A stretch of 64,000 bases of DNA. Origin: Clostridiales bacterium. GTDB taxonomy: Bacteria; Bacillota; Clostridia; Christensenellales; UBA3700. The DNA is taken from the NCBI GenBank assembly GCA_015055975.1, contig SVHF01000001.1, forward strand, positions 134,752 to 198,751, given 5' to 3'. The position numbers and the translations under genes are program-made. Below are positions 18,595-47,265 of the stretch, in pieces; within the stretch, counting starts at the first letter, position 1, and each line of letters opens with the position of its first letter. The notes beneath the pieces are model-generated. The model worked only from the letters and a program-made list of their open reading frames with translations, made no database searches and was not told the origin of the DNA.

Positions 18595-18862
18595 ACTGTG
18601 CATCCTTTTTCGATAGTATATACCCAAGTGGTACAAAAGTAGTTAACTCCCTTAAAGCTACCTCGTGGCACATCGAACAATCTGCTTAATGCTGCTGCGA
18701 TCAAGCCCTGACATGGTTCACAGCGTTCAATTGCACAAGACCTTAATATCAACATCACTTGCTTAAGGCAAACCTTACATATATAAAACCTAGAAAGGCA
18801 TTCGGTCCTGCTAGAGCGGATTGCAGATACAGGGCACCGCTAACTCCCCACCTAGCACAGTA
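18595..18862 (-). ncRNA. ffs: Signal recognition particle RNA, long Bacillus type with Alu domain (scRNA/ffs); ends approximate
   Basis: The reverse complement reads GTGCTAGGTGGGGAGTTAGCGGTGCCCTGTATCTGCAATCCGCTCTAGCAGGACCGAATGCC and TGAACCATGTCAGGGC...GCAGCAGCATTAAG. As I recall it, this closely parallels B. subtilis scRNA. 5'/3' pairing ACTGTGC/GCACAGT. Confidence 0.85.
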
Positions 18863-33764: not shown

Positions 33765-34496
33765 ATGAACGCATCAGTATTAGACAGAGAACAAGCAAAT
33801 ACACAATCTCGTATGCCAAATCCTGGATATACAAGTTTGTATTCGCAAAGAGTGCAACCTATCTCTAGACCTGTTCAAGATATGACACCTAATCGTATGC
33901 CAAGTTATCAACCACAAAACGATTATTATACAAATGTTCAAAGCGATAATATTGATATGGGTGTTAGCGCATATGACATGCAAAACATGATCCAACATAA
34001 TGCTGCTCAATTCGCTCAAACTTATAGTTACAATCCTTATTACTATGAACAACAATACTATAACAATGTTAGTGCAAACGTAGAAACTCATCCAACGAAC
34101 TTCTACCAACCTGTACAAACAAATGATTATATGTATTACCAAGCTCCACAAATGGGACAAATCAATCAAGAATACGAATATGAAAAGACAATCCCACAAA
34201 AGAGCAAGGCTAAAAATAAGACAACTAAGGCTCTAATTGCTGTTTATTTCTTGATCGTTGCTATAGCAGCTGCATTAATAATTGTTAATGTTGTTGCTGC
34301 TGCAAGTGCTGCTACAGTTACTGCTGCAACAGTTGAAACAGCTGCTGCTTCTGAAGATGCTGTATATTATACAGTTGATGATAATGGTTCAATTTCAGAA
34401 ATGGCTAAGTCAGAGCAAGTAGTTGATTATGTATATGATACATCTACTAACTGGTTTGATAGATTGTGCGATAAGATAGGCAATATCTTAGGCTAA
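33765..34496 (+). CDS. Single-pass membrane protein with an N/Q/Y-rich cytoplasmic region, in the position normally held by ftsL
   Basis: Residues 1-145 are low-complexity (Y, Q, N, P). One TM (ALIAVYFLIVAIAAALIIVNVVAAA). About 60 aa external tail. No recognisable family. Confidence 0.4.
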   Translation: MNASVLDREQANTQSRMPNPGYTSLYSQRVQPISRPVQDMTPNRMPSYQPQNDYYTNVQSDNIDMGVSAYDMQNMIQHNAAQFAQTYSYNPYYYEQQYYNNVSANVETHPTNFYQPVQTNDYMYYQAPQMGQINQEYEYEKTIPQKSKAKNKTTKALIAVYFLIVAIAAALIIVNVVAAASAATVTAATVETAAASEDAVYYTVDDNGSISEMAKSEQVVDYVYDTSTNWFDRLCDKIGNILG

Positions 34497-36569: not shown

Positions 36570-37856
36570 ATGTCGGAGATTCAACCAAGAAATGCTAGAA
36601 TTCTAGTAATGGGCGTAGGCGGCGGTGGCTGCAACGCAGTAAACAGTATGATCGCATCAGGAGTAAACAGCGCAGAATTCGTTGCTGTTAATACAGATGC
36701 ACAAGCTTTAAATATGTCTAAAGCAGACATCAAAATTCCAATCGGAACATCTATAACAAGAGGTTTAGGTGCAGGATCAAGACCAGAAGTTGGTAAGCAA
36801 GCTGCAGATGAATCTCGTAATGAATTGGATAAGGCATTAGATAATGTTGATATGCTATTTGTAACTGCTGGTATGGGCGGCGGTACAGGAACAGGTGCTG
36901 CTCCAGTAATCGCTCAAATCGCAAGAGAAAAGGGCATAGTAACAGTTGGTGTCGTAACAAAGCCATTCGCTTTCGAAGGAAAGATCAGAGGTAAGAATGC
37001 TGAAGAAGGTATTTCAAATCTTAAGAAGGCTTGCGATACAGTAATTGTTATTCCAAATGATAACTTACTAAAAGTATTGGGACCAAAAGCAACAATGTTA
37101 GAAGCATTTAAGCATGCAGACTCAGTTTTAAGAGATGCAATTAAGGGCTTATCTGATTTGATTGCTGTTCCATCTATGATTAACGTTGACTTTGCTGACG
37201 TTAAGACAATTATGAAAGATAAAGGTATGGCTCACTTAGCTGTTGGCGTAGCAGAAGGCCCAGATAAGATTAAGTTAGCTGTTGATAGAGCTATCATGAG
37301 CGACCTATGCAATACAAATATTTCAGGTGCTACAGGTATCTTATTAAATGTAGTTGGTGGCCCATCATTAGGTATGATGGAAGCTATTCAAGCTTCAGAT
37401 CTTGTAAGACAATGCGTAGCTCCAGATGCATTAATCATCTTCGGTTTCGGTATTGAAGAAGATTATGGTGACAAGGTTCAAGTATTACTTGTTGCTACTG
37501 GATTTGAAGAAAATGCACAAATGGGAAGATTCGGTGCTACTAAGTACACAGGTGGTGTACCTCTAGATAACCAAGCATTTAAGTCTAAATATGGTTTACA
37601 ATCAGAACCACAAGTTCAACCAAGACAAGAAATGGTAGCTGATGCTAATCAATATGTTGCTCAACCAAATCAACAAATGCAACAAGCACAACCAGCTCAA
37701 CCACAAATGCAACCAACTCAACCACGTCCTCAATATTCATATGCATCAATATTCGGGACTCAACCACAACCACAACAAGCTCAACCAGCACAACCACAAC
37801 AATCTGGTAAAAAATTACCACCATGGTTTGCTAGATTAAGCAACAGAAACGTTTAA
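36570..37856 (+). CDS. ftsZ: Cell division protein FtsZ with a Q/P-rich C-terminal linker
   Basis: GVGGGGCNAVN, GGGTGTGAAPVIA tubulin signature, NVDFADV. Tail of QPQ repeats ending KKLPPWFARL. Confidence 0.97.
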   Translation: MSEIQPRNARILVMGVGGGGCNAVNSMIASGVNSAEFVAVNTDAQALNMSKADIKIPIGTSITRGLGAGSRPEVGKQAADESRNELDKALDNVDMLFVTAGMGGGTGTGAAPVIAQIAREKGIVTVGVVTKPFAFEGKIRGKNAEEGISNLKKACDTVIVIPNDNLLKVLGPKATMLEAFKHADSVLRDAIKGLSDLIAVPSMINVDFADVKTIMKDKGMAHLAVGVAEGPDKIKLAVDRAIMSDLCNTNISGATGILLNVVGGPSLGMMEAIQASDLVRQCVAPDALIIFGFGIEEDYGDKVQVLLVATGFEENAQMGRFGATKYTGGVPLDNQAFKSKYGLQSEPQVQPRQEMVADANQYVAQPNQQMQQAQPAQPQMQPTQPRPQYSYASIFGTQPQPQQAQPAQPQQSGKKLPPWFARLSNRNV

Positions 37857-37888
37857 TACAAGTTTACAACAACATATATACCCAAAAA

Positions 37889-37930
37889 GGAAGGAAGTGT
37901 CTTTCTAGATGCTTCTTTTCTTTTTTTTTT
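37889..37930 (+). terminator. Rho-independent terminator after ftsZ
   Basis: GGAAGGAAG / CTTCTTTTC 9 bp stem (two G-U pairs) followed by T10. Confidence 0.7.
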
Positions 37931-37946
37931 GCGAAAAAATCCAATA

Positions 37947-37975
37947 TTGACTATAAATATTAATAATATTATAAT
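37947..37975 (+). promoter_or_regulatory. Promoter TTGACT-17-TATAAT for the seven-gene operon
   Basis: TTGACT 37947-37952, 17 nt spacer, TATAAT 37970-37975, 36 nt before ATG 38012. Confidence 0.65.
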
Positions 37976-38011: not shown

Positions 38012-38785
38012 ATGGTGGTTATGATAGATAAAAGAACTAAAGTTATCGGATTAAAGGAATTAGAACTTACTAATGACGATTTGTTTGTTAGAAAATCTAT
38101 CACGGGCATTTCAGAAGATTCAAAAGTAATAGTGGATGAAACTCATGTAGCAATATTGTTAAAAGATGGTATTGCGCTTGAAACATTAAGACCTGGTATT
38201 TATCCAATTTATTCAAAAAATACTTTATTTTCTAAATCAACAAAACTAGATACAACAAGACTTGAATTGTTCTTCATTTCGAAAACTGCAAAAGTTAGGA
38301 TTTTATGGGGTACTCCAGCACTTTTTGATATACATGATCCAATTTCTGGTATTGCAGCAAAGATGGGAGCTAGTGGAGAAATCGAAATTAGAATCAAAAA
38401 TCCAAGACAATTCTATATTGAAGTTGTAGGGTCAAATGCAAAGTTTACTGTTGAAGATTTAAAAGAAAGATTAAAGGGTGTAATTTTATCTAGAATTGAG
38501 CCAACAATTTCATCATATATTGAAGTTGATGAAGTACCTTTAGATAGAATCGGAGAAGAAAAACTATCTATTGCAAGATACTTACAACAAGATTTAAAGC
38601 GTGAACTTAGTCTAAATTATGGGCTTGAAGTTAGCAATGTTATAGTTAGCAATGTAAATATTGCGGATAAATACAAAGAAGAAGCAGCTACAAAACTAAG
38701 AGGCGAGATGGCATGTCCTCATTGTGGCGTAAAACTTGTTCCAGGAAGCAAGTTCTGTAATAACTGTGGTATGAAGGTGAGATAA
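38012..38785 (+). CDS. SPFH/Band-7 (COG4260, YdjI-like) protein with a C-terminal zinc ribbon
   Basis: Beta-rich N-terminal half and SPFH-like core (GASGEIEIRIKNPRQF..., LNYGLEVSNVIVSNVNI). C-terminal CPHCGVKLVPGSKFCNNCG. No TM helix. Confidence 0.65.
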   Translation: MVVMIDKRTKVIGLKELELTNDDLFVRKSITGISEDSKVIVDETHVAILLKDGIALETLRPGIYPIYSKNTLFSKSTKLDTTRLELFFISKTAKVRILWGTPALFDIHDPISGIAAKMGASGEIEIRIKNPRQFYIEVVGSNAKFTVEDLKERLKGVILSRIEPTISSYIEVDEVPLDRIGEEKLSIARYLQQDLKRELSLNYGLEVSNVIVSNVNIADKYKEEAATKLRGEMACPHCGVKLVPGSKFCNNCGMKVR

Positions 38786-39129
38786 TGGGTTTATTTTCAA
38801 AGAAAGGAATCAGTATAGATTTATCTAATGCTCATATCGCAAAGGTATTAGAGGTAAGACAAACGCTTGAAGCAAATGCTAATAAATTAAAGGCTATAAT
38901 GTTCCAAGCATCAGATAGCGAGAAAAAGATATTGGCTCAAGCTTATATAGATATCAAATATGCAAATCCATTAGTTGATGAAAAAATCGCACAAATAGAT
39001 GACGAAATATCAAAAACTTTAGATGATTTAAAGTTAAACTATGCTAGACGTGTTAAAAGTGAATTAACTATTGCGAATAAAATTAATAGTTTATTGGAAT
39101 TAATACAACAACGACAAGCGTTGGAGTAG
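38785..39129 (+). CDS. Small (114 aa) coiled-coil protein starting MGLFSKK
   Basis: All-helical heptad-like sequence. Shares the MGL(F/L) N-terminus with the next two genes. ATG overlaps the upstream stop (TAATG). Confidence 0.4.
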   Translation: MGLFSKKGISIDLSNAHIAKVLEVRQTLEANANKLKAIMFQASDSEKKILAQAYIDIKYANPLVDEKIAQIDDEISKTLDDLKLNYARRVKSELTIANKINSLLELIQQRQALE

Positions 39130-39140
39130 TAGGAGGATAA

Positions 39141-39767
39141 ATGGGATTATTATCATTTTTTAGATTTAGAAAACTAAAGAGAGAAGATGTTGTTGAATCA
39201 ATCGTAAAACTTGAAAAGCAACAACAAGAAATCGAAGATGGCATCGTAGACAAAGAGGCTCATATTCAAGAACTTTTAGCAAAAGGTAAGAAAGAAAAGT
39301 CTCAAGAAATACGTTTAATGTATGCTAAACAAATTAATTATCTAAAAGAACAAAAAACTAGAGATGCAAAACGTGGCATGTATTTAACATATAACATCAA
39401 CATGATGAACAAGTTAAAAGATGCTATGGAAGATAAAGAATTCTTTACTACATCTAGCAAGATCCAATTAAACAAGTTGCTTGCTGATCAAAAGGGCTTA
39501 GCTAGATACCTAAATAAGGCATTGAAGGTAAGAATTAAAGAAGAAGATGTATTAACTAATGCAGATGAAACATTCAACGAAGTTGCATCTATGTATGAAG
39601 ATAATGACACAATTTATGGAGCAGGCAAGACAGATGACCAATTATTGGCTATGTTTGAAGAAGGCGATGCTGCAGATGAATTAGAAACAATACAAAATAT
39701 AGATGAAAAGGGCGAAGCTGCCTTATTATCAAAAACATTTGAGGAGACAGACAATGGGACTATTTAA
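39141..39767 (+). CDS. ESCRT-III (Snf7/CHMP4-like) superfamily protein
   Basis: 208 aa. MGLLSFFRFRK N-terminus. Basic helical hairpin (ESIVKLEKQQQEIEDGIV...ELLAKGKKEKSQEIRLMYAKQINYLKEQ) parallels Snf7 alpha1-alpha2. Acidic C-terminal third. Confidence 0.6.
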   Translation: MGLLSFFRFRKLKREDVVESIVKLEKQQQEIEDGIVDKEAHIQELLAKGKKEKSQEIRLMYAKQINYLKEQKTRDAKRGMYLTYNINMMNKLKDAMEDKEFFTTSSKIQLNKLLADQKGLARYLNKALKVRIKEEDVLTNADETFNEVASMYEDNDTIYGAGKTDDQLLAMFEEGDAADELETIQNIDEKGEAALLSKTFEETDNGTI

Positions 39768-40341
39768 GAGCAAAGAAGAAAAACAAATCGAAGCAAAAAT
39801 GAAGGTCAAACAAACAATTAATAAGTTTAACAAGCAAATTTCTAAATTTGAAGAGCAAAAGAAGGTATATCTTGATGCTGCAAAGCGTGCTAAAAGACTT
39901 GGCCTTCCAGATGAAGTTAGATTAGCAATTACTGGATACCTATTGACAACAAATCAACAAAAGAGAGCACAAAAGATGCTTCTAAACTTTGAGATTGCTG
40001 CTCAAATGAAAGATATGGAAGTTATGAATGCTGAATTCTTGAAGAGCTTAGGCGATGTATCTAAGGATATGATAAAGCTTACAAACAATAAGGATTTTGC
40101 AAAAGTTCAAGCTCAATTTGAAAAGGCTATGGCTTTATCTCAAACAAGAGCAGAACAAATGGATATGTATCTTGAGTCTTCTCAAACAGAATTTGCAGCT
40201 CAAACAGGCGATGCAAGTTCAATTTCTGATGACGAAATCGATTCACTTGTTACAGAACTTGCTTCTCAAGACGAAATCAATGAATCTACAATTGATGCTC
40301 AATTAGAAAAGATTCACCAAAAAATGTCTCAAACATCATAA
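39754..40341 (+). CDS. ESCRT-III (CHMP3/Vps24- or Vps2-like) superfamily protein with a MIM-like C-terminus
   Basis: MGLFKSKEEK (compare human CHMP3 MGLFGKTQEK). KFEEQKKVYLDAAKRAKRLG...QQKRAQKMLLNF...MKDM...LGDVSKDM follows the CHMP helix pattern. Acidic tail ends IDAQLEKIHQKM. GAGGAG RBS. Starts 14 nt inside the previous gene. Confidence 0.65.
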   Translation: MGLFKSKEEKQIEAKMKVKQTINKFNKQISKFEEQKKVYLDAAKRAKRLGLPDEVRLAITGYLLTTNQQKRAQKMLLNFEIAAQMKDMEVMNAEFLKSLGDVSKDMIKLTNNKDFAKVQAQFEKAMALSQTRAEQMDMYLESSQTEFAAQTGDASSISDDEIDSLVTELASQDEINESTIDAQLEKIHQKMSQTS

Positions 40342-40348
40342 GAGGATT

Positions 40349-41785
40349 ATGGAAGATATAACAATTTTAAGAGATAAATATGACATTCTTTTAAAGAAAG
40401 CCGAAACAGCTGATGCTATGGGCAATTATTCTATTGCGTATAGAAATTATATGTTAGCTGCAGAAACTATGCTTAAAATTGCAAAAACATCTACGCCAGA
40501 ACTAAAGAAAGTTCAAATTAAGCGTGCAAATGATTTAGTTGCAAGAGCAGAACTTCTAGGCAATCCACCACAAACTCCAAAAAGATCTGCATCTCAACCT
40601 CAAGCTAAAGGTCAAGAAACTCAAAGAAATGAGGAAGAAGATACAGGAAAAGAGTGGGTAGGAGCTGAGATTCCAAATATCAAGTTCAAAGATGTAGCAG
40701 GATTGGATGAAGTTAAAAAGACTGTCATGACTAGAATGATAAATCCAGTTTTGTATCCAGATAAGTATGCAAAATATGGTAAAAAGGTAGGCGGTGGCGT
40801 TTTACTATATGGGCCTCCAGGAACAGGTAAGACATTTATCGCAAAAGCAATCGCCGGTGAAGTAGGCGCAACATTCTATGCAATTAAAGGCTCAGATATT
40901 ATGAGCAAATATGTAGGCGAATCAGAAAAGAACATTTCTTCTTTATTTGAAGCTGCTAAAGAACAAAAGTTATCTATCATCTTTATTGATGAAATGGATT
41001 CATTATTTGGAGAAAGAGGAAAAGATACACATAACGATAAGCGTGTTAATGAATTCCTACAACAAATCGATGGATTTGCTTCAAAGACGGATAACTTATT
41101 AATCTTGGGTGCTACAAATAGGCCATGGGATGTAGATTCAGCTGCAGTTAGATCTGGAAGATTTTCAGAAAAGATCTATGTTCCACTTCCTGATGAAAAG
41201 GCAAGAGAGTTTATGTTCAAGCATAACCTTGAAAATGTGCCACTAGGAAACGATGTAGATTTTGATAAATTAGTAGGCTTAACAGATGGCTATTCTGGTG
41301 CAGATATTGCCGAAATTTGCGATAGAGCAAAAGAAGATCCACTAAACATCTATATTAAAACAGATGTTGAAGAACCAGTATCTATGAAATACATAGAAGC
41401 TGCAATAAAGAAAGTAAAACCAACAGTTAGCAAGCTAGAAATCAGAAGATTTGAAGAATATGCAGGCATTAATAGAGATGAGGAAAAACCACAAGCTCCA
41501 ACTAAAGAGAAATGTGATGTTAAATTTGCAAGTACTCAAATTCAACTTTTACCAAATCAAAAGCCAGTATTAGAATTCACGCTATCTCGCGATTTTGATA
41601 AGGTGTATTTAGCTATTGATGGTTCTAACTATATTTGTAATAAAAAATTAGCATCATGGGAAAGCGAGCCTCTTAATATCAAAGATGCTGGCACTTATGA
41701 TGTAGAAATCACGTCGAATAACTTTAAAGCCGTAGGGAGAATTTCATTTATTAAAGGACTAGAAGAAGACGATCTAGGCCTATAA
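40349..41785 (+). CDS. Vps4/CdvC-like AAA ATPase: N-terminal MIT domain, one AAA cassette, extra C-terminal beta-rich domain
   Basis: MIT: KAETADAMGNYSIAYRNYMLAAETMLKIAK...IKRANDLVARAELL (compare Vps4 KAGNYEEAL..Y..A......K...I..K...YLDRAEKL). Walker A GPPGTGKT, Walker B IIFIDEMD, SRH GATNRPWDVDSAAVRSGRF. Confidence 0.8.
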   Translation: MEDITILRDKYDILLKKAETADAMGNYSIAYRNYMLAAETMLKIAKTSTPELKKVQIKRANDLVARAELLGNPPQTPKRSASQPQAKGQETQRNEEEDTGKEWVGAEIPNIKFKDVAGLDEVKKTVMTRMINPVLYPDKYAKYGKKVGGGVLLYGPPGTGKTFIAKAIAGEVGATFYAIKGSDIMSKYVGESEKNISSLFEAAKEQKLSIIFIDEMDSLFGERGKDTHNDKRVNEFLQQIDGFASKTDNLLILGATNRPWDVDSAAVRSGRFSEKIYVPLPDEKAREFMFKHNLENVPLGNDVDFDKLVGLTDGYSGADIAEICDRAKEDPLNIYIKTDVEEPVSMKYIEAAIKKVKPTVSKLEIRRFEEYAGINRDEEKPQAPTKEKCDVKFASTQIQLLPNQKPVLEFTLSRDFDKVYLAIDGSNYICNKKLASWESEPLNIKDAGTYDVEITSNNFKAVGRISFIKGLEEDDLGL

Positions 41786-41793
41786 GGTGAGTT

Positions 41794-43233
41794 ATGGCAG
41801 AAGTAGTAGCAAAATTAAAAGAATCATTTGATGGGATGATTGTTAAAAAGTCATCTTTGCAAGGTGTATTTTCATCATTGAATTTACCTGCGTTTATTAG
41901 AGATTGGTTCTTAAAAAGGTACGCAGATAAAGATGGTAGCGTTAATGTTAATTTTGTACTTGAAAAGATTAAAGACGTAATGCCAAGAAAGGATGAATGG
42001 AATTCTTATCTTGATAGACTCCTAAATGGAGAAAGGGTAAAGTTTCTAGCAAAGATTATTATTGATATCGATATAAAGACTGAAATAATAACTTTTGCGC
42101 TTCCAGATTTTGGCGTTTCATTTAAACAAACACACATTCCAAAATCTGTTTGGGATAAGCACAAAAAAGAATTGCTTGTAACAGACGGCGAGTTTTGGGG
42201 CATTTTGGATCTTGAATATAAGCAAATTCAAAATGGTAAAAAGCAAGAAGGAAAGATATCTTTAGTAGATTTTAAAGACTTTAGGCCATACAAGGTTGAT
42301 TTGGGATTCTTTAAAGAAGCAAGAAAGAACTTTGAAATTGACGAATGGATTGATGTTCTTCTTGGCGCAATTGATTACAACGCAAATGGATTTAAAGATG
42401 AAAATCAAAAAATAACAATGCTTACAAGATTGTTGCCATTTGTAGAAGAAAGATTGAATTTGATGGAACTTGCGCCAAAGGGAACAGGAAAGAGCTATAT
42501 CTTTTCTCAAATATCTAAAAAAGGATGGCTAGTTTCTGGTGGCGTTATGACTAGAGCCAAGATGTTCTATGATATGAATAAACATCAAGATGGCTTAGTA
42601 TCTTTTTATGATTATGTAGCGCTAGATGAAATATCTACAATTAAGTTCCCAGATATCGATGAGATGCGTGGAGCTATGAAAGGATATTTAGAAGCTGGAA
42701 CATATAACGTTGGAAATAAAGCAGGTTCTGGAAAAGCAGGTGTTGTTTTGCTAGGTAATATCCGTGAAGAGAAGATGGATGTTAACAACAACATGCTAGA
42801 AGAATTGCCACCACTTTTTGAAGATTCTGCATTAATTGATAGATTCCATGGATTTATCAAAGGCTGGGATGTTCCAAGAATGAACGAAGACATGAAAGTT
42901 AACGATTGGGCATTAAATACAGAATATTTCTCTGAGATAATGCATGCATTAAGAGAAGATGTTATAGAAAAAGCAATCGTTGATGAATTGGTCGAAGTTC
43001 CAAAGGATGCAGATACAAGAGACACAAAAGCAATTAAGAGAATTGCAACAGCATATGTAAAACTATTCTTCCCACACTGGACAAGTGTAGATGATGTAAA
43101 TAAGGAAGAATTTAAAAAATACTGTCTAGATAGAGCAGTAGAAATGAGAAAAATAATTAAAACTCAATTAGGAATCATGGATAGCGAATATAAAAAGCAT
43201 CCAGTTCAAGAGTTTAAGATAAAGGGAGAGTAA
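41794..43233 (+). CDS. BrxL-type (TIGR02688/PF13337-like) AAA+ ATPase lacking the Lon-protease domain
   Basis: Blocks EWIDVLLGAI, RLLPFVEERLNLMELAPKGTGKSYIF, LVSGGVMTRAKMFYDM, YDYVALDEIS and IDRFHGFIKGWDVPRM match BrxL as I recall it. 479 aa, ending before where the Lon domain would begin. Confidence 0.8.
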   Translation: MAEVVAKLKESFDGMIVKKSSLQGVFSSLNLPAFIRDWFLKRYADKDGSVNVNFVLEKIKDVMPRKDEWNSYLDRLLNGERVKFLAKIIIDIDIKTEIITFALPDFGVSFKQTHIPKSVWDKHKKELLVTDGEFWGILDLEYKQIQNGKKQEGKISLVDFKDFRPYKVDLGFFKEARKNFEIDEWIDVLLGAIDYNANGFKDENQKITMLTRLLPFVEERLNLMELAPKGTGKSYIFSQISKKGWLVSGGVMTRAKMFYDMNKHQDGLVSFYDYVALDEISTIKFPDIDEMRGAMKGYLEAGTYNVGNKAGSGKAGVVLLGNIREEKMDVNNNMLEELPPLFEDSALIDRFHGFIKGWDVPRMNEDMKVNDWALNTEYFSEIMHALREDVIEKAIVDELVEVPKDADTRDTKAIKRIATAYVKLFFPHWTSVDDVNKEEFKKYCLDRAVEMRKIIKTQLGIMDSEYKKHPVQEFKIKGE

Positions 43234-45377
43234 TGAAGTTAACAGCGTTTCAATGCCCAATATGTATGAGTACGCATTTTAGAAAAGAGCAAGATGCTTA
43301 TGTTTGCGAATCATGCGGTAATACTTATACAGAAAAACAAGCAGATAGCCAAATGTTTATCGATCTTAGAATCGCAAATAGACATAGACAATTTGCTGAG
43401 TTTTCTAAAGCAAAAGAAATATATACAGAAATCATCGCAAAATACAAAGATGAAGAAGATGTTTCTTCTGCTTATTGGGGTTTATTGCTATGCGATCAAT
43501 CAGTAATGCTTGAAGTTGACAATCAAGGCCAACTATTCCCATCGTTTTATAGAGTTAAATCTATGCCAATTGAAGAAACTGATGCTTATAAAAAGTTGAT
43601 GAAATACGTCAAAAAGCATGCTGAAGAAAAGTTGGACGATTATCAAGAGAGAATAAATATCATCGAATCAGCTAGAGATAAGGCCAATGTTATAGCAAAT
43701 TCTTCAAAACCATATGATGTATTCATTTGTTTTAAGAAAACTCAACTTGATTCAGATATGGTAACTCCAGATTATGATGTAGCAAATGAAATCTATAATG
43801 AGCTATCTACAAAATATAAAGTATTCTATTCTGAAAAGTCTTTAAGAAATATTAGAGTTAGAGATTTTGAGCCAAATATCTATTATGGACTTTATACTGC
43901 AAAAGTAATGCTTATCATTTGCTCAAAGCGTGAATTTTTGGAATCTCATTGGATGAAAAATGAGTGGAAGAGATTCATGGAATTAAATAAATCTAGAGAT
44001 CAAGATTATAAGAGCATTATTCCTATCTTTATAGACAACTTTACTGAAGAAGATTTGCCAGATGAACTTGCACATAAGCAAGCTCTAAAATATGGTATAT
44101 CTTTAATTTCAGATATCGATAAAACTCTACAAAAGATTATTAACCCAATCGATAAAGATGAAGAGCAACAAAAGCAAATTGAAATGCTTATGGCTAATCA
44201 AAAGAAAATCTTAGAGGAGTGGTCAAAGCGTGAAAGCCAAACAATTGAGTTTAGCCAAGAGCAAGGAAAACCAAGATTGACTCCACAAGAAGAAAAAATT
44301 AGATCAATTTTAAAGCTAGCAAAAGTTAACATCGAAGATTTGGGTAATTTCGACGAAGCAGAAGGACAAGTTAGAAAAGCACAAGAAATTGATGCTGAAA
44401 ATTATGTAACTTGGTTCTACAAATTGATGATAGATTTCAAGGCTCAATCAATTGATGAGCTTATTATGCATGATAACTTCAGAGATAGCGTAAATTATAG
44501 ACTATTTGTTAAATATGCAAATAAAGCAGGAAAAGGCGATGATGTTCAAAAGCTTGAAGGAGCTAGAGAAGATTTCTTAAGAGCCTCAGCTCAAAAAGTA
44601 AATGATTTATTGCAAGCTTTAAAAGATAATCCAAATCCACTTGAAGAAGATGTCGGAAAGATAAAACTAGTTTACGAATCACTTCCTAAAGAAGCTCAAC
44701 AATATGTCGTTGATTTGAAAGAAACAATTTTAAACGCAAGAAAACAAATGCGTGAAAACAAAATTGGCAACTTTAAAACAAGACTAACTATGGTTAGCAA
44801 TAAAGAGCATCCAAATTACGACGATATTTTGAAGATTGAGGAAGAATATGAGAATTTGTCCGAAGATGAGCGAGATTTGGCTGGAGATGGCTATAAACAA
44901 GTCATAACGGATGCATCTAATAAGATGAAGGATGCAAAAGTTCAAAAAGTTCAACAAGCTTTGATAACAATTGATAATCAAGAGAATCCTTCTCGTGATG
45001 ATTTGATTCATATAGAGAAGATGTATAACGAATTAGAAGACAAGTCTAAAGCTTCTGTTCATGACTATAAAGAGATAATGCTAAGAGCATACGATAAAAA
45101 GTATATTAACGATGCTAAATTGTTATCTAAATACTTAACAAAATTGCCAACAGAAAAAGTTCCAAATAGAGATATCTATACGAAACTTGAAAATAGATAT
45201 AAAGCACTTCCAAAGAAATACAGATTAATGGTAGAGCATATTGAATATTTGGACGATTATTACGATAAGTTAATAGCATCTGAAGGCGGAAAAGTAACAA
45301 CTGTTGAAAAACAACAAGAAAATATAAAGACAACAAAGGGAGAGCCAGCGAAAAAGAAAAAACACTGGTTGTGGTAG
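43233..45377 (+). CDS. Zinc-ribbon / TIR-domain / TPR-like and four-repeat helical protein
   Basis: CPICMS...CESCG ribbon (residues 8-29). TIR core from YDVFICF (residue 161) to SHWMKNEWKRF with candidate catalytic Glu244 (43962-43964). Four 58-60 aa repeats at residues 466-680. Confidence 0.8.
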   Translation: MKLTAFQCPICMSTHFRKEQDAYVCESCGNTYTEKQADSQMFIDLRIANRHRQFAEFSKAKEIYTEIIAKYKDEEDVSSAYWGLLLCDQSVMLEVDNQGQLFPSFYRVKSMPIEETDAYKKLMKYVKKHAEEKLDDYQERINIIESARDKANVIANSSKPYDVFICFKKTQLDSDMVTPDYDVANEIYNELSTKYKVFYSEKSLRNIRVRDFEPNIYYGLYTAKVMLIICSKREFLESHWMKNEWKRFMELNKSRDQDYKSIIPIFIDNFTEEDLPDELAHKQALKYGISLISDIDKTLQKIINPIDKDEEQQKQIEMLMANQKKILEEWSKRESQTIEFSQEQGKPRLTPQEEKIRSILKLAKVNIEDLGNFDEAEGQVRKAQEIDAENYVTWFYKLMIDFKAQSIDELIMHDNFRDSVNYRLFVKYANKAGKGDDVQKLEGAREDFLRASAQKVNDLLQALKDNPNPLEEDVGKIKLVYESLPKEAQQYVVDLKETILNARKQMRENKIGNFKTRLTMVSNKEHPNYDDILKIEEEYENLSEDERDLAGDGYKQVITDASNKMKDAKVQKVQQALITIDNQENPSRDDLIHIEKMYNELEDKSKASVHDYKEIMLRAYDKKYINDAKLLSKYLTKLPTEKVPNRDIYTKLENRYKALPKKYRLMVEHIEYLDDYYDKLIASEGGKVTTVEKQQENIKTTKGEPAKKKKHWLW

Positions 45378-46876: not shown

Positions 46877-47199
46877 CAAGATGGCCAGATGATCGCAGGC
46901 CCGCAAGGGAATGAGGAAAGTCCGAGCACCACAAGGCAGAGTGCTGGTTAACGACCAGTCAAGGTGACTTGAAGGAAAGTGCAACAGAAAATAACCGCCA
47001 ACTTAGTTGGTAAGGATGAAAAGGCGAGGTAAGAGCTCACCGTCCTTAAGGTGACTTAGGGAGCCGTGTAAACCCCACTTGGTGCAAGAGAAAGCGACAA
47101 TTAGTAGCCTGCTAGTCGCGAAATCGCTTGAGCGTATTGGCAACAATGCGCCTAGACAGATGATCATCCAATACAGAACTCGGCTTATAGACCATCTTG
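46877..47199 (+). ncRNA. rnpB: RNase P RNA (compact, about 323 nt)
   Basis: GAGGAAAGTCCG at 46913-46924, ACAGAACTCGGCTTAT at 47173-47188, P1 pairing CAAGATGG.../...CCATCTTG, followed by a T run. Confidence 0.9.
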
Positions 47200-47265
47200 T
47201 TTTTTTATGCAATTATGCGTGAATATGCGTATAAATATACATTTAAGATTTTTACTAAACAATTG

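Follow-up and report, generated by a model that had tools for sequence, protein, structure and literature searches.

A probable ESCRT-III/Vps4 membrane-remodelling operon with a Snf7-type subunit in Clostridia

The ESCRT-III (Snf7)/Vps4 membrane-cutting and repair machine is treated in recent reviews as limited to the archaea and the eukaryotes, and according to a 2025 review a Vps4-like ATPase "appears absent in bacteria" (PMC7619361). Ravi 2024 reported Vps4-like ATPases that were transferred to bacteria, where snf7 was displaced by a TPR-6TM gene, together with occasional bacterial Snf7 homologs. The closest described systems are those of the archaeal "Main clade" (Thermococcales, Methanococcales and others), in which Snf7 paralogs of arCOG07402, arCOG09747 and arCOG09749 accompany Vps4 (Makarova et al. 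2024, PMC10936438). Here we describe an operon in a 64,000-nucleotide stretch of a Clostridiales bacterium, hereafter the window (assembly GCA_015055975.1, contig SVHF01000001.1, positions 134,752 to 198,751, forward strand). It encodes an SPFH–zinc-ribbon protein, three consecutive small proteins named P1, P2 and P3, a Vps4/CdvC-like AAA+ ATPase, a BrxL-like ATPase and a zinc-ribbon–TPR–TIR protein (Table 1). Judged from sequence, its molecular identity is very probably that of an ESCRT-III/Vps4 machine, and we consider it likely that the operon as a whole represents a bacterial form of the membrane repair and remodelling apparatus of archaea and eukaryotes. Synteny counts given below refer to 80 fetched related loci, and the scan for P3 relatives to one genome per species.

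The identification of P3 as a Snf7-type ESCRT-III protein, orthologous to archaeal arCOG07402, is strongly supported by sequence comparison. An exhaustive profile search with P3 gathered 520 cluster representatives, 115 of which form the broad family profile. Against the PDB this profile matched CHMP2A in register (residues 9-143 vs 6-143, E=2.8e-6), followed by CHMP1B (0.008), CHMP3 (0.01) and, lower, CdvB2 and Vps24. When the 115 members were scanned singly, 23 matched the Pfam Snf7 family (PF03357; best 1.4e-9), whereas PspA_IM30 (PF04012) was matched by none of them, nor by P1, P2 or P3. The first-pass annotation, made from the letters alone, had proposed that two of the three small proteins resemble Snf7/CHMP subunits rather than PspA; for P3 these profiles, and the arCOG07402 alignment below, bear this out.

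A tblastn search of 72,556 plasmids (7.3 Gb) with P3 returned a single match, on a plasmid of Thermococcus peptonophilus (E=2e-7), where the homolog belongs to a Ser/Thr kinase–Vps4–PP2C–ESCRT-III locus. Pairwise BLASTP of P3 with the Thermococcus ESCRT-III protein gave E=1e-15, with 29% identity over 171 residues and two gaps, and the two N-termini are nearly identical (LWKSKEEKEIERK vs LFKSKEEKQIEAK). Alignment of the P3 family with 33 archaeal homologs by hhalign extended over 185 columns (98.6% probability, E=5.9e-16). Several of the archaeal homologs carry a precomputed PF03357 annotation; some begin MGLFKSK and most end in an amphipathic helix, LDxxIEKRLKxVEEMMKK. Both the N-terminal (MGLFKSKEEKEIE) and the C-terminal motifs of P3 are thus shared with archaeal orthologs, of which the Palaeococcus member is listed as arCOG07402, "ESCRT-III/Snf7 family", in a "Main clade" ESCRT system (Table S2 of Makarova et al. 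2024, PMC10936438).

Several results weigh against this identification. As a single sequence P3 aligned with Pfam Snf7 over its full length and in register, but weakly (E=0.87), and phmmer against the PDB gave nothing useful. A narrow profile of P3 orthologs found no PDB match, the CHMPs being reached only by the broad 115-member profile. The AlphaFold2 (AF2) model is only moderately confident (mean pLDDT 68), and although CHMP1B and the CHMP2A–CHMP3 filaments head its Foldseek list, with Vipp1 only at rank 27, the E-values are at least 0.12 and so non-significant. Weak single-sequence searches and non-significant Foldseek values are also what one might see if the small proteins were generic coiled-coil or PspA/IM30-type proteins beside an unrelated AAA ATPase. 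Designed helical repeats do occur among the matches, and helical charged sequences are known to draw spurious ones. We nevertheless regard such a compositional resemblance as very improbable, and for P3 as largely refuted. Human CHMPs, archaeal CdvB and arCOG07402 are all matched in register and over the full length; reversed-profile controls drop to E=0.1-0.3 over short stretches; PspA_IM30 is missing from the whole family; the terminal motifs recur in archaeal orthologs; and in bacteria as in archaea, MIT–AAA ATPases are linked to the gene.

Helices are predicted in the P3 model at residues 7-48, 52-110, 113-149, 159-170 and 177-193, so that the hairpin and the α3-α5 arrangement of an ESCRT-III subunit appear to be present, at the model confidence given above. 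The last of these helices had been read as a type 1 MIT-interacting motif (MIM1), the consensus of which, said to go back to Obita and to Stuchell-Brereton in 2007, is reportedly (D/E)xxLxxRLxxL(K/R). In this conserved amphipathic helix the hydrophobic spacing of the motif is present, but the conserved Arg of MIM1 is missing, and among 36 orthologs 14 match a loose form of the motif and none the strict form.

Snf7 domains of the P3 type also occur in other settings. In other Bacillota they are found in N-terminal fusion with RuvB-like AAA+ ATPases, of which some also have a NERD nuclease, or with ATPases of the FtsK/HerA type (P0162, P0169, P0172, P0180, P0203 and P0222; locus L082, 8001-9668). 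Such fusions to RuvB-like, NERD and FtsK-like modules are architectures typical of conflict systems. On a contig of 70% GC (L081, 2334-6686), an AAA ATPase, a P3-like Snf7 protein and two Ser/Thr kinases lie in a row, a kinase linkage that echoes the archaeal Main-clade ESCRT systems.

The gene after P3 encodes a protein that, by sequence, has the architecture of Vps4, namely MIT, one AAA cassette and Vps4_C. The cassette matches PF00004 at 145 bits, with Walker A, Walker B and the aromatic pore loop all intact, AAA_lid_3 is present, and Vps4_C (PF09336) is matched at residues 340-371 with 24.8 bits (cut-off 21.3). The MIT domain (residues ~5-78), already suspected at first reading, was recovered by a profile of 17 orthologous N-termini, which matched the MIT domain of chitin synthase (1.4e-4), VPS4A/B (0.02-0.05), calpain-7 and Sulfolobus CdvC in the PDB. 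The same N-termini aligned with those of archaeal Vps4 in hhalign (91%, E=9e-7). The ATPase is 35-36% identical to Thermococcales Vps4. Its closest archaeal relative found is a second MIT-AAA ATPase in two uncultured, archaeal-looking loci (L088 and L090), to which it is 39% identical over the full length, MIT included, and whose gene is preceded by an arCOG07402-type gene. Two points count against the assignment: the MIT domain of the single sequence scores 24.6 bits, under the Pfam cut-off of 30, and CDC48, FtsH and PAN models score the protein as well as CdvC does (215-229 bits). Residues 17-371 align with the NCBIfam CdvC model, whose score of 215 bits lies far under the equivalog cut-off of 650. 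Vps4 has a Trp in its pore loop. The window protein has Tyr at this place, and orthologs have Trp (KWVGDSEK in L005).

Beyond Vps4_C the ATPase carries an extra, beta-rich domain of about 90-100 residues (aa ~388-478, window 41510-41782) with an EEDDLGL tail, the conserved acidic form of which is KG[LIM]EE[DN]D[LF]G[LI]. This domain has no Pfam match and is confined to loci with the short BrxL-like ATPase (10/11); correspondingly, Vps4 is at least 481 residues long in 10 of the 11 BrxL-containing loci. It may be a docking module.

The second MIT-AAA ATPase lies within L088 8304-12614 and L090 16251-17327. The genes after it in L088 encode a HEAT and zinc-ribbon protein and then a 536-residue coiled-coil and zinc-ribbon protein. 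The latter was considered as an SPFH protein from its by-eye likeness to Meth_adaptin SPFH–CC–ZnR and was rejected, as neither Pfam nor hhalign supported this and only its zinc ribbon aligns with the window SPFH protein. On a further archaeal contig (L089, 9001-11915), Vps4 is immediately preceded by a run of three Snf7-like genes (196, 186 and 201 aa), a compact layout like that of the window.

P2 is, we believe, fairly likely to be a second, divergent Snf7-family ESCRT-III paralog. Its orthologs begin MWPFK, and the acidic tail carries a conserved DDxLLAMFE. Alignment of the P2 orthologs with the P3 family by hhalign covered 166 co-linear columns at E=7e-4 (probability 26%), whereas reversed-profile controls gave E 0.22-0.27 over 13-25 columns. 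Archaeal Main-clade loci contain two further proteins of ~198 aa, starting MGILDRFRK and MGLLPRFFGKK, for which the table of Makarova et al. 2024 (PMC10936438) gives arCOG09747 and arCOG09749 with the name "Snf7 family protein". The P2 profile aligned with nine archaeal proteins of this kind at E=5e-5 (probability 68-77%; reversed control E=0.12), over the N-terminal hairpin only, and BLASTP of P2 with the 199-aa protein of Palaeococcus gave E=9e-5 with 34% identity from residue 1. P2 is the probable counterpart of arCOG09747/09749, as far as sequence comparison can tell. The archaeal set is itself linked to arCOG07402 only at E=3e-4, so the archaeal paralogs are about as distant from one another as P2 is from them.

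For P2 the proposed preference for Snf7 over PspA thus finds moderate support. The AF2 model (pLDDT 77) predicts a hairpin of residues 14-51 and 55-96 with pLDDT above 90, followed by short helices, and its top Foldseek matches are CdvB2 and CdvB (TM-score 0.46-0.51, probability up to 0.97). Against it stand the Foldseek E-values of 0.1-0.5, which are non-significant, profile-link probabilities of only 26-77%, and the lack of any significant match of P2 to Pfam or to PDB sequences. In addition, hhalign placed P2 out of register on arCOG07402, a joint profile of P2 and the archaeal proteins found nothing significant in the PDB (CdvB at E=0.2), and a profile search to widen the P2 family returned close relatives only.

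P1 had been counted as a third member of the ESCRT-III set, and this part of the proposal is not borne out. We detected no similarity to Snf7: hhalign against the P3 family gave E=0.11 over 13 columns and against the archaeal arCOG09747/9-like set E 0.54-0.65, and the P1 profile found no match in the PDB. With ~90 helical residues, P1 is also too short for the full fold. In most orthologs the alignment has a transmembrane helix at the N-terminus, and in BrxL-type loci, including the window, this is replaced by MGLF, MCFW or MLFS and then lysines. The exchange suggests a membrane-anchoring role for the MGLF segment. A motif inside P1, D-x-K-I-x-x-[KR]-L-[DG]-D-[LI]-K (aa 72-83, nt 38998-39033), is conserved as well, and 11 of 20 family members match the strict and 17 of 20 the loose MIM1 pattern; in 1,157 background proteins the strict pattern occurs 0.0028 times per 100 residues. 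On sequence, this internal motif fits the MIM1 consensus better than does the C-terminal helix of P3.

The locus compares most closely with the archaeal Main clade. P3 corresponds to arCOG07402 at the ortholog level, with the MGLFKSKEEKEIE N-terminus and the C-terminal amphipathic helix; P2 resembles arCOG09747/09749 in its hairpin region and in the MGLL/MGIL..RFF type of N-terminus; and an MIT–AAA–Vps4_C ATPase lies alongside, which in some archaeal loci (L088) comes immediately behind the arCOG07402-type gene. It differs in its bacterial host, in having two recognisable Snf7 paralogs in place of three, and in its partners, which are the SPFH–zinc-ribbon, P1, zinc-ribbon–TPR–TIR and BrxL-like proteins. 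When Palaeococcus proteins served as tblastn queries, neither the window nor the 80 loci had a match (E<=1e-3) to archaeal arCOG09748 (winged helix), arCOG08177 (Cas2-like/TBP), the Ser/Thr kinase or PP2C.

With eukaryotic ESCRT-III of the CHMP2A/CHMP3/CHMP1B (Vps2/24/46) group, the proteins share a basic N-terminal hairpin, an acidic C-terminus, a hydrophobic and basic H0 and an amphipathic C-terminal helix whose spacing is MIM1-like, and the ATPase shares the MIT domain and Vps4_C helix of VPS4. Identity is only about 15-20%, and ESCRT-0, -I and -II components and a ubiquitin link are missing. To our knowledge, N-myristoylation is not to be expected in bacteria. The crenarchaeal Cdv system (CdvA/CdvB/CdvC) likewise combines ESCRT-III paralogs with an MIT-bearing AAA ATPase; CdvB and CdvB2 head the Foldseek list of P2, and the CdvC model spans nearly the whole window ATPase. 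Unlike Cdv, the locus lacks CdvA, its ESCRT-III proteins have no winged-helix extension, FtsQ, FtsA and FtsZ are present, and the CdvC score is below cut-off. PspA/Vipp1 (IM30), as in the B. subtilis pspA-ydjGHI operon, belongs to the same superfamily and would act, like the window proteins, at the cytoplasmic face of the membrane. The SPFH partner there, YdjI, resembles the window Band_7_1 protein with its C-terminal zinc ribbon. The window proteins differ from PspA/Vipp1 in being of Snf7 type (no PspA_IM30 match among the 115) and in the company of a Vps4-like MIT ATPase.

Table 1. Features of the operon and its upstream region in the window
Feature	Position	Strand	Remarks
Terminator-like hairpin after ftsZ	37884-37925	+	
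Sigma-70-like promoter, TTGACT-17-TATAAT	37947-37975	+	11/12 promoter matches; best in region
SPFH (Band_7_1) protein with C-terminal zinc ribbon	38012-38785	+	
P1, 114 aa	38785-39129	+	N-terminus MGLFSKKG; ATG overlaps TAA of SPFH gene
P2, 208 aa	39141-39767	+	N-terminus MGLLSFFRFRK; AGGAGG 5 nt upstream
P3, 195 aa	39754-40341	+	N-terminus MGLFKSKEEK; GAGGAG 8 nt upstream
P3 C-terminal amphipathic MIM1-like helix	40282-40332		aa 177-193
Vps4/CdvC-like AAA+ ATPase	40349-41785	+	
Walker A, GPPGTGKT			ATPase aa 155-162
Pore loop, SKYVGESEK			ATPase aa 186-194
Walker B, IIFIDEMD			ATPase aa 210-217
Short BrxL-like AAA+ ATPase	41794-43233	+	
Zinc-ribbon–TPR-like–TIR protein	43233-45377	+	Long helical C-terminal region

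The window is part of a low-GC (about 33%) chromosome with ftsQ-ftsA-ftsZ. Its bacterial context is indicated by a class A RNase P RNA (rnpB; 46877-47203, 286 bits), which lies just downstream of the operon, and a large bacterial signal recognition particle RNA (18596-18860, 177 bits). The terminator-like hairpin and promoter-like site behind ftsZ place the start of the operon there; no further terminator-like site was seen on the plus strand before 47293, and the gene following that of the zinc-ribbon–TPR–TIR protein is nrdR. The mechanical open reading frame of P3 opens at 39703, upstream of the true ATG, which we assigned because of the GAGGAG in front of it and because all 36 aligned orthologs begin MGLFK, residues M1 G2 L3 F4 K5 being invariant (36/36). 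Since the ATG of P1 overlaps the preceding stop codon and P3 overlaps the end of P2, P1, P2 and P3 are translationally coupled.

The three N-termini quoted in the first-pass annotation, and the C-terminal sequence it quoted for P3, are exact in the translations. Among the 65 Met-initiated open reading frames of at least 100 aa in the window, MGL starts are restricted to P1, P2 and P3 (at its true start), and this type of N-terminal motif is kept in orthologs and archaeal homologs. A basic N-terminal and an acidic C-terminal half had been ascribed to all three proteins; isoelectric points agree with this for P2 (9.25 and 4.20) and P3 (9.86 and 4.21), and the trend is only weak in P1 (net charge +2 and -1). 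Upstream of ftsQ lies a gene for an N/Q/Y-rich low-complexity protein with a transmembrane segment (33765-34496), and FtsZ of the window (36570-37856) has a long Q/P-rich C-terminal linker.

The position directly downstream of ftsQ-ftsA-ftsZ, an arrangement common to four or five close relatives, raises the possibility of a cell-division accessory in which ESCRT-III and Vps4 aid final scission after FtsZ constriction, much as Cdv does in Crenarchaeota. We think this quite unlikely, as a terminator precedes the operon, which then has a promoter of its own, and FtsZ directs division in prokaryotes with both systems (PMC7619361). Adjacency to ftsZ is found in only 5/80 loci, all from close relatives, the others lying in unrelated neighbourhoods; linkage to ftsZ as a conserved feature was accordingly rejected.

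Relatives of P3 were found in at least 116 species genomes, all of them gut metagenome-assembled genomes, from animals and humans, of Clostridia/Christensenellales (Caccovivens, Coproplasma and their relatives). The SPFH–P1–P2–P3–Vps4 core is present in about 75/80 loci, nearly always with at least one zinc-ribbon–TPR protein. This conserved synteny, together with its breadth, points to an entrenched function. Three subtypes can be distinguished. The window type has the BrxL-like ATPase and a Vps4 with the C-terminal extension. The Caccovivens type has a transmembrane-anchored P1, a 119-aa TPR protein and a zinc-ribbon–TPR–transmembrane–GLUG protein of ~1250 aa. The Coproplasma type has two zinc-ribbon–TPR–TIR–transmembrane proteins and a zinc-ribbon–trypsin-like protease.

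Among the partner proteins, the SPFH protein matches Band_7_1 (PF13421) at 69.5 bits (cut-off 24) and Zn_Ribbon_1 at 29.6 bits (cut-off 25), and is present in 74 of the 80 loci. In B. subtilis, YdjI is the SPFH partner that localises PspA (PMC10936438, PMC11237479), and by analogy the window protein is a probable membrane scaffold or recruiter. The BrxL-like ATPase matches TIGR02688 at 439.9 bits (cut-off 329) and, over its full length, the PADLOC BrxL model PDLC02505 at 680.8 bits; it is without the Lon protease domain. The zinc-ribbon–TPR–TIR protein matches TIR_2 at 42.9 bits (cut-off 28), with the motif SHWMKNEW at aa 238-245. Its zinc-ribbon–TPR family (cluster 0) is represented in 75 of the 80 loci, and the catalytic-like TIR motif is kept in 15/79. 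In 14 related loci, though not in the window, a zinc-ribbon–trypsin-like serine protease with a GNSGGP motif directly follows Vps4 (e.g. L004 11060-11848).

The TIR, BrxL and protease genes and the nuclease fusions point to a conflict or damage response. The role that we favour, while giving it about an even chance, is repair and remodelling of the cytoplasmic membrane under envelope damage, coupled to damage sensing. Against simple repair, these same accessories (TIR, BrxL, the zinc-ribbon protease and the NERD, RuvB-like and FtsK-like Snf7 fusions) speak for a part in conflict. The operon could then be mainly an anti-phage or conflict system in which the TIR protein, the BrxL-like ATPase and/or the protease sense infection and ESCRT-III/Vps4 is the effector or self-protection arm. 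The membrane could be pinched off or resealed at sites of phage entry or lysis, or disrupted in abortive infection. This would suit the S.W...E-like motif of the TIR_2 domain, the full-length BrxL match, the protease behind Vps4 in 14 loci, the fused P3 relatives and the variation of accessory genes among locus types. We hold it to be rather unlikely, however. Synteny of the core is kept across a single lineage, in at least 116 species genomes; phage records and viral contigs gave no match; and the sole plasmid match is archaeal. The catalytic-like TIR motif is limited to those 15 loci and BrxL to 11. Of the PADLOC defence models, only BrxL and, for the generic AAA part, IetA/TRIP13 were matched, and none by the SPFH protein, P1, P2, P3 or the TIR protein. 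Beside BrxL the related loci showed no further BREX genes, and the 64-kb window has no BREX-sized open reading frame (none exceeds 714 aa), although BREX models were not run on its other open reading frames.

For membrane repair and remodelling, the role favoured here, we propose the following sequence of events. By analogy with YdjI and PspA, an oligomer of the SPFH–zinc-ribbon protein would mark a patch of the cytoplasmic membrane. P2 and P3 would bind there through their amphipathic or basic N-terminal H0 (MGLL.., MGLF..) and basic hairpins, and co-polymerise. P1, held by its transmembrane helix or, in the window, by MGLF and lysines, would present a MIM1-type helix, and this helix and the C-terminal amphipathic helix of P3 would recruit the MIT domains of a Vps4 hexamer. 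Vps4 could then thread subunits through its pore (SKYVGESEK), leading to filament turnover and to scission or resealing of the membrane. The zinc-ribbon–TPR–TIR protein and, in the window subtype, the BrxL-like ATPase may couple this remodelling to sensing or to an immune-type response.

More tentatively, and with only a modest chance of being right, this could be a complete, vertically inherited archaeal-type ESCRT-III/Vps4 machine that came by an ancient archaea-to-bacteria transfer and now serves throughout a lineage of gut bacteria as an immune or damage-response system, wired to TIR, BrxL-like and protease modules and using ESCRT scission or resealing as its executing arm. A possible parallel is found in eukaryotic cell-death pathways, where ESCRT-III repairs membranes damaged by pores.

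A full-text literature search found no description of an SPFH–P1–P2–P3–Vps4 operon, its coverage being incomplete, so that earlier notice elsewhere is possible. Snf7-type subunits in one operon with an MIT-bearing Vps4 in more than 100 bacterial species revise the published distribution of this machine and bear on how ESCRT may have arisen and been spread horizontally. The Snf7 branch is now linked to an SPFH partner formerly known for PspA. The operon offers a bacterial setting in which the mechanics of ESCRT-III and Vps4 may be studied, and it raises the testable question of whether ESCRT-type membrane repair takes part in bacterial stress or immunity.

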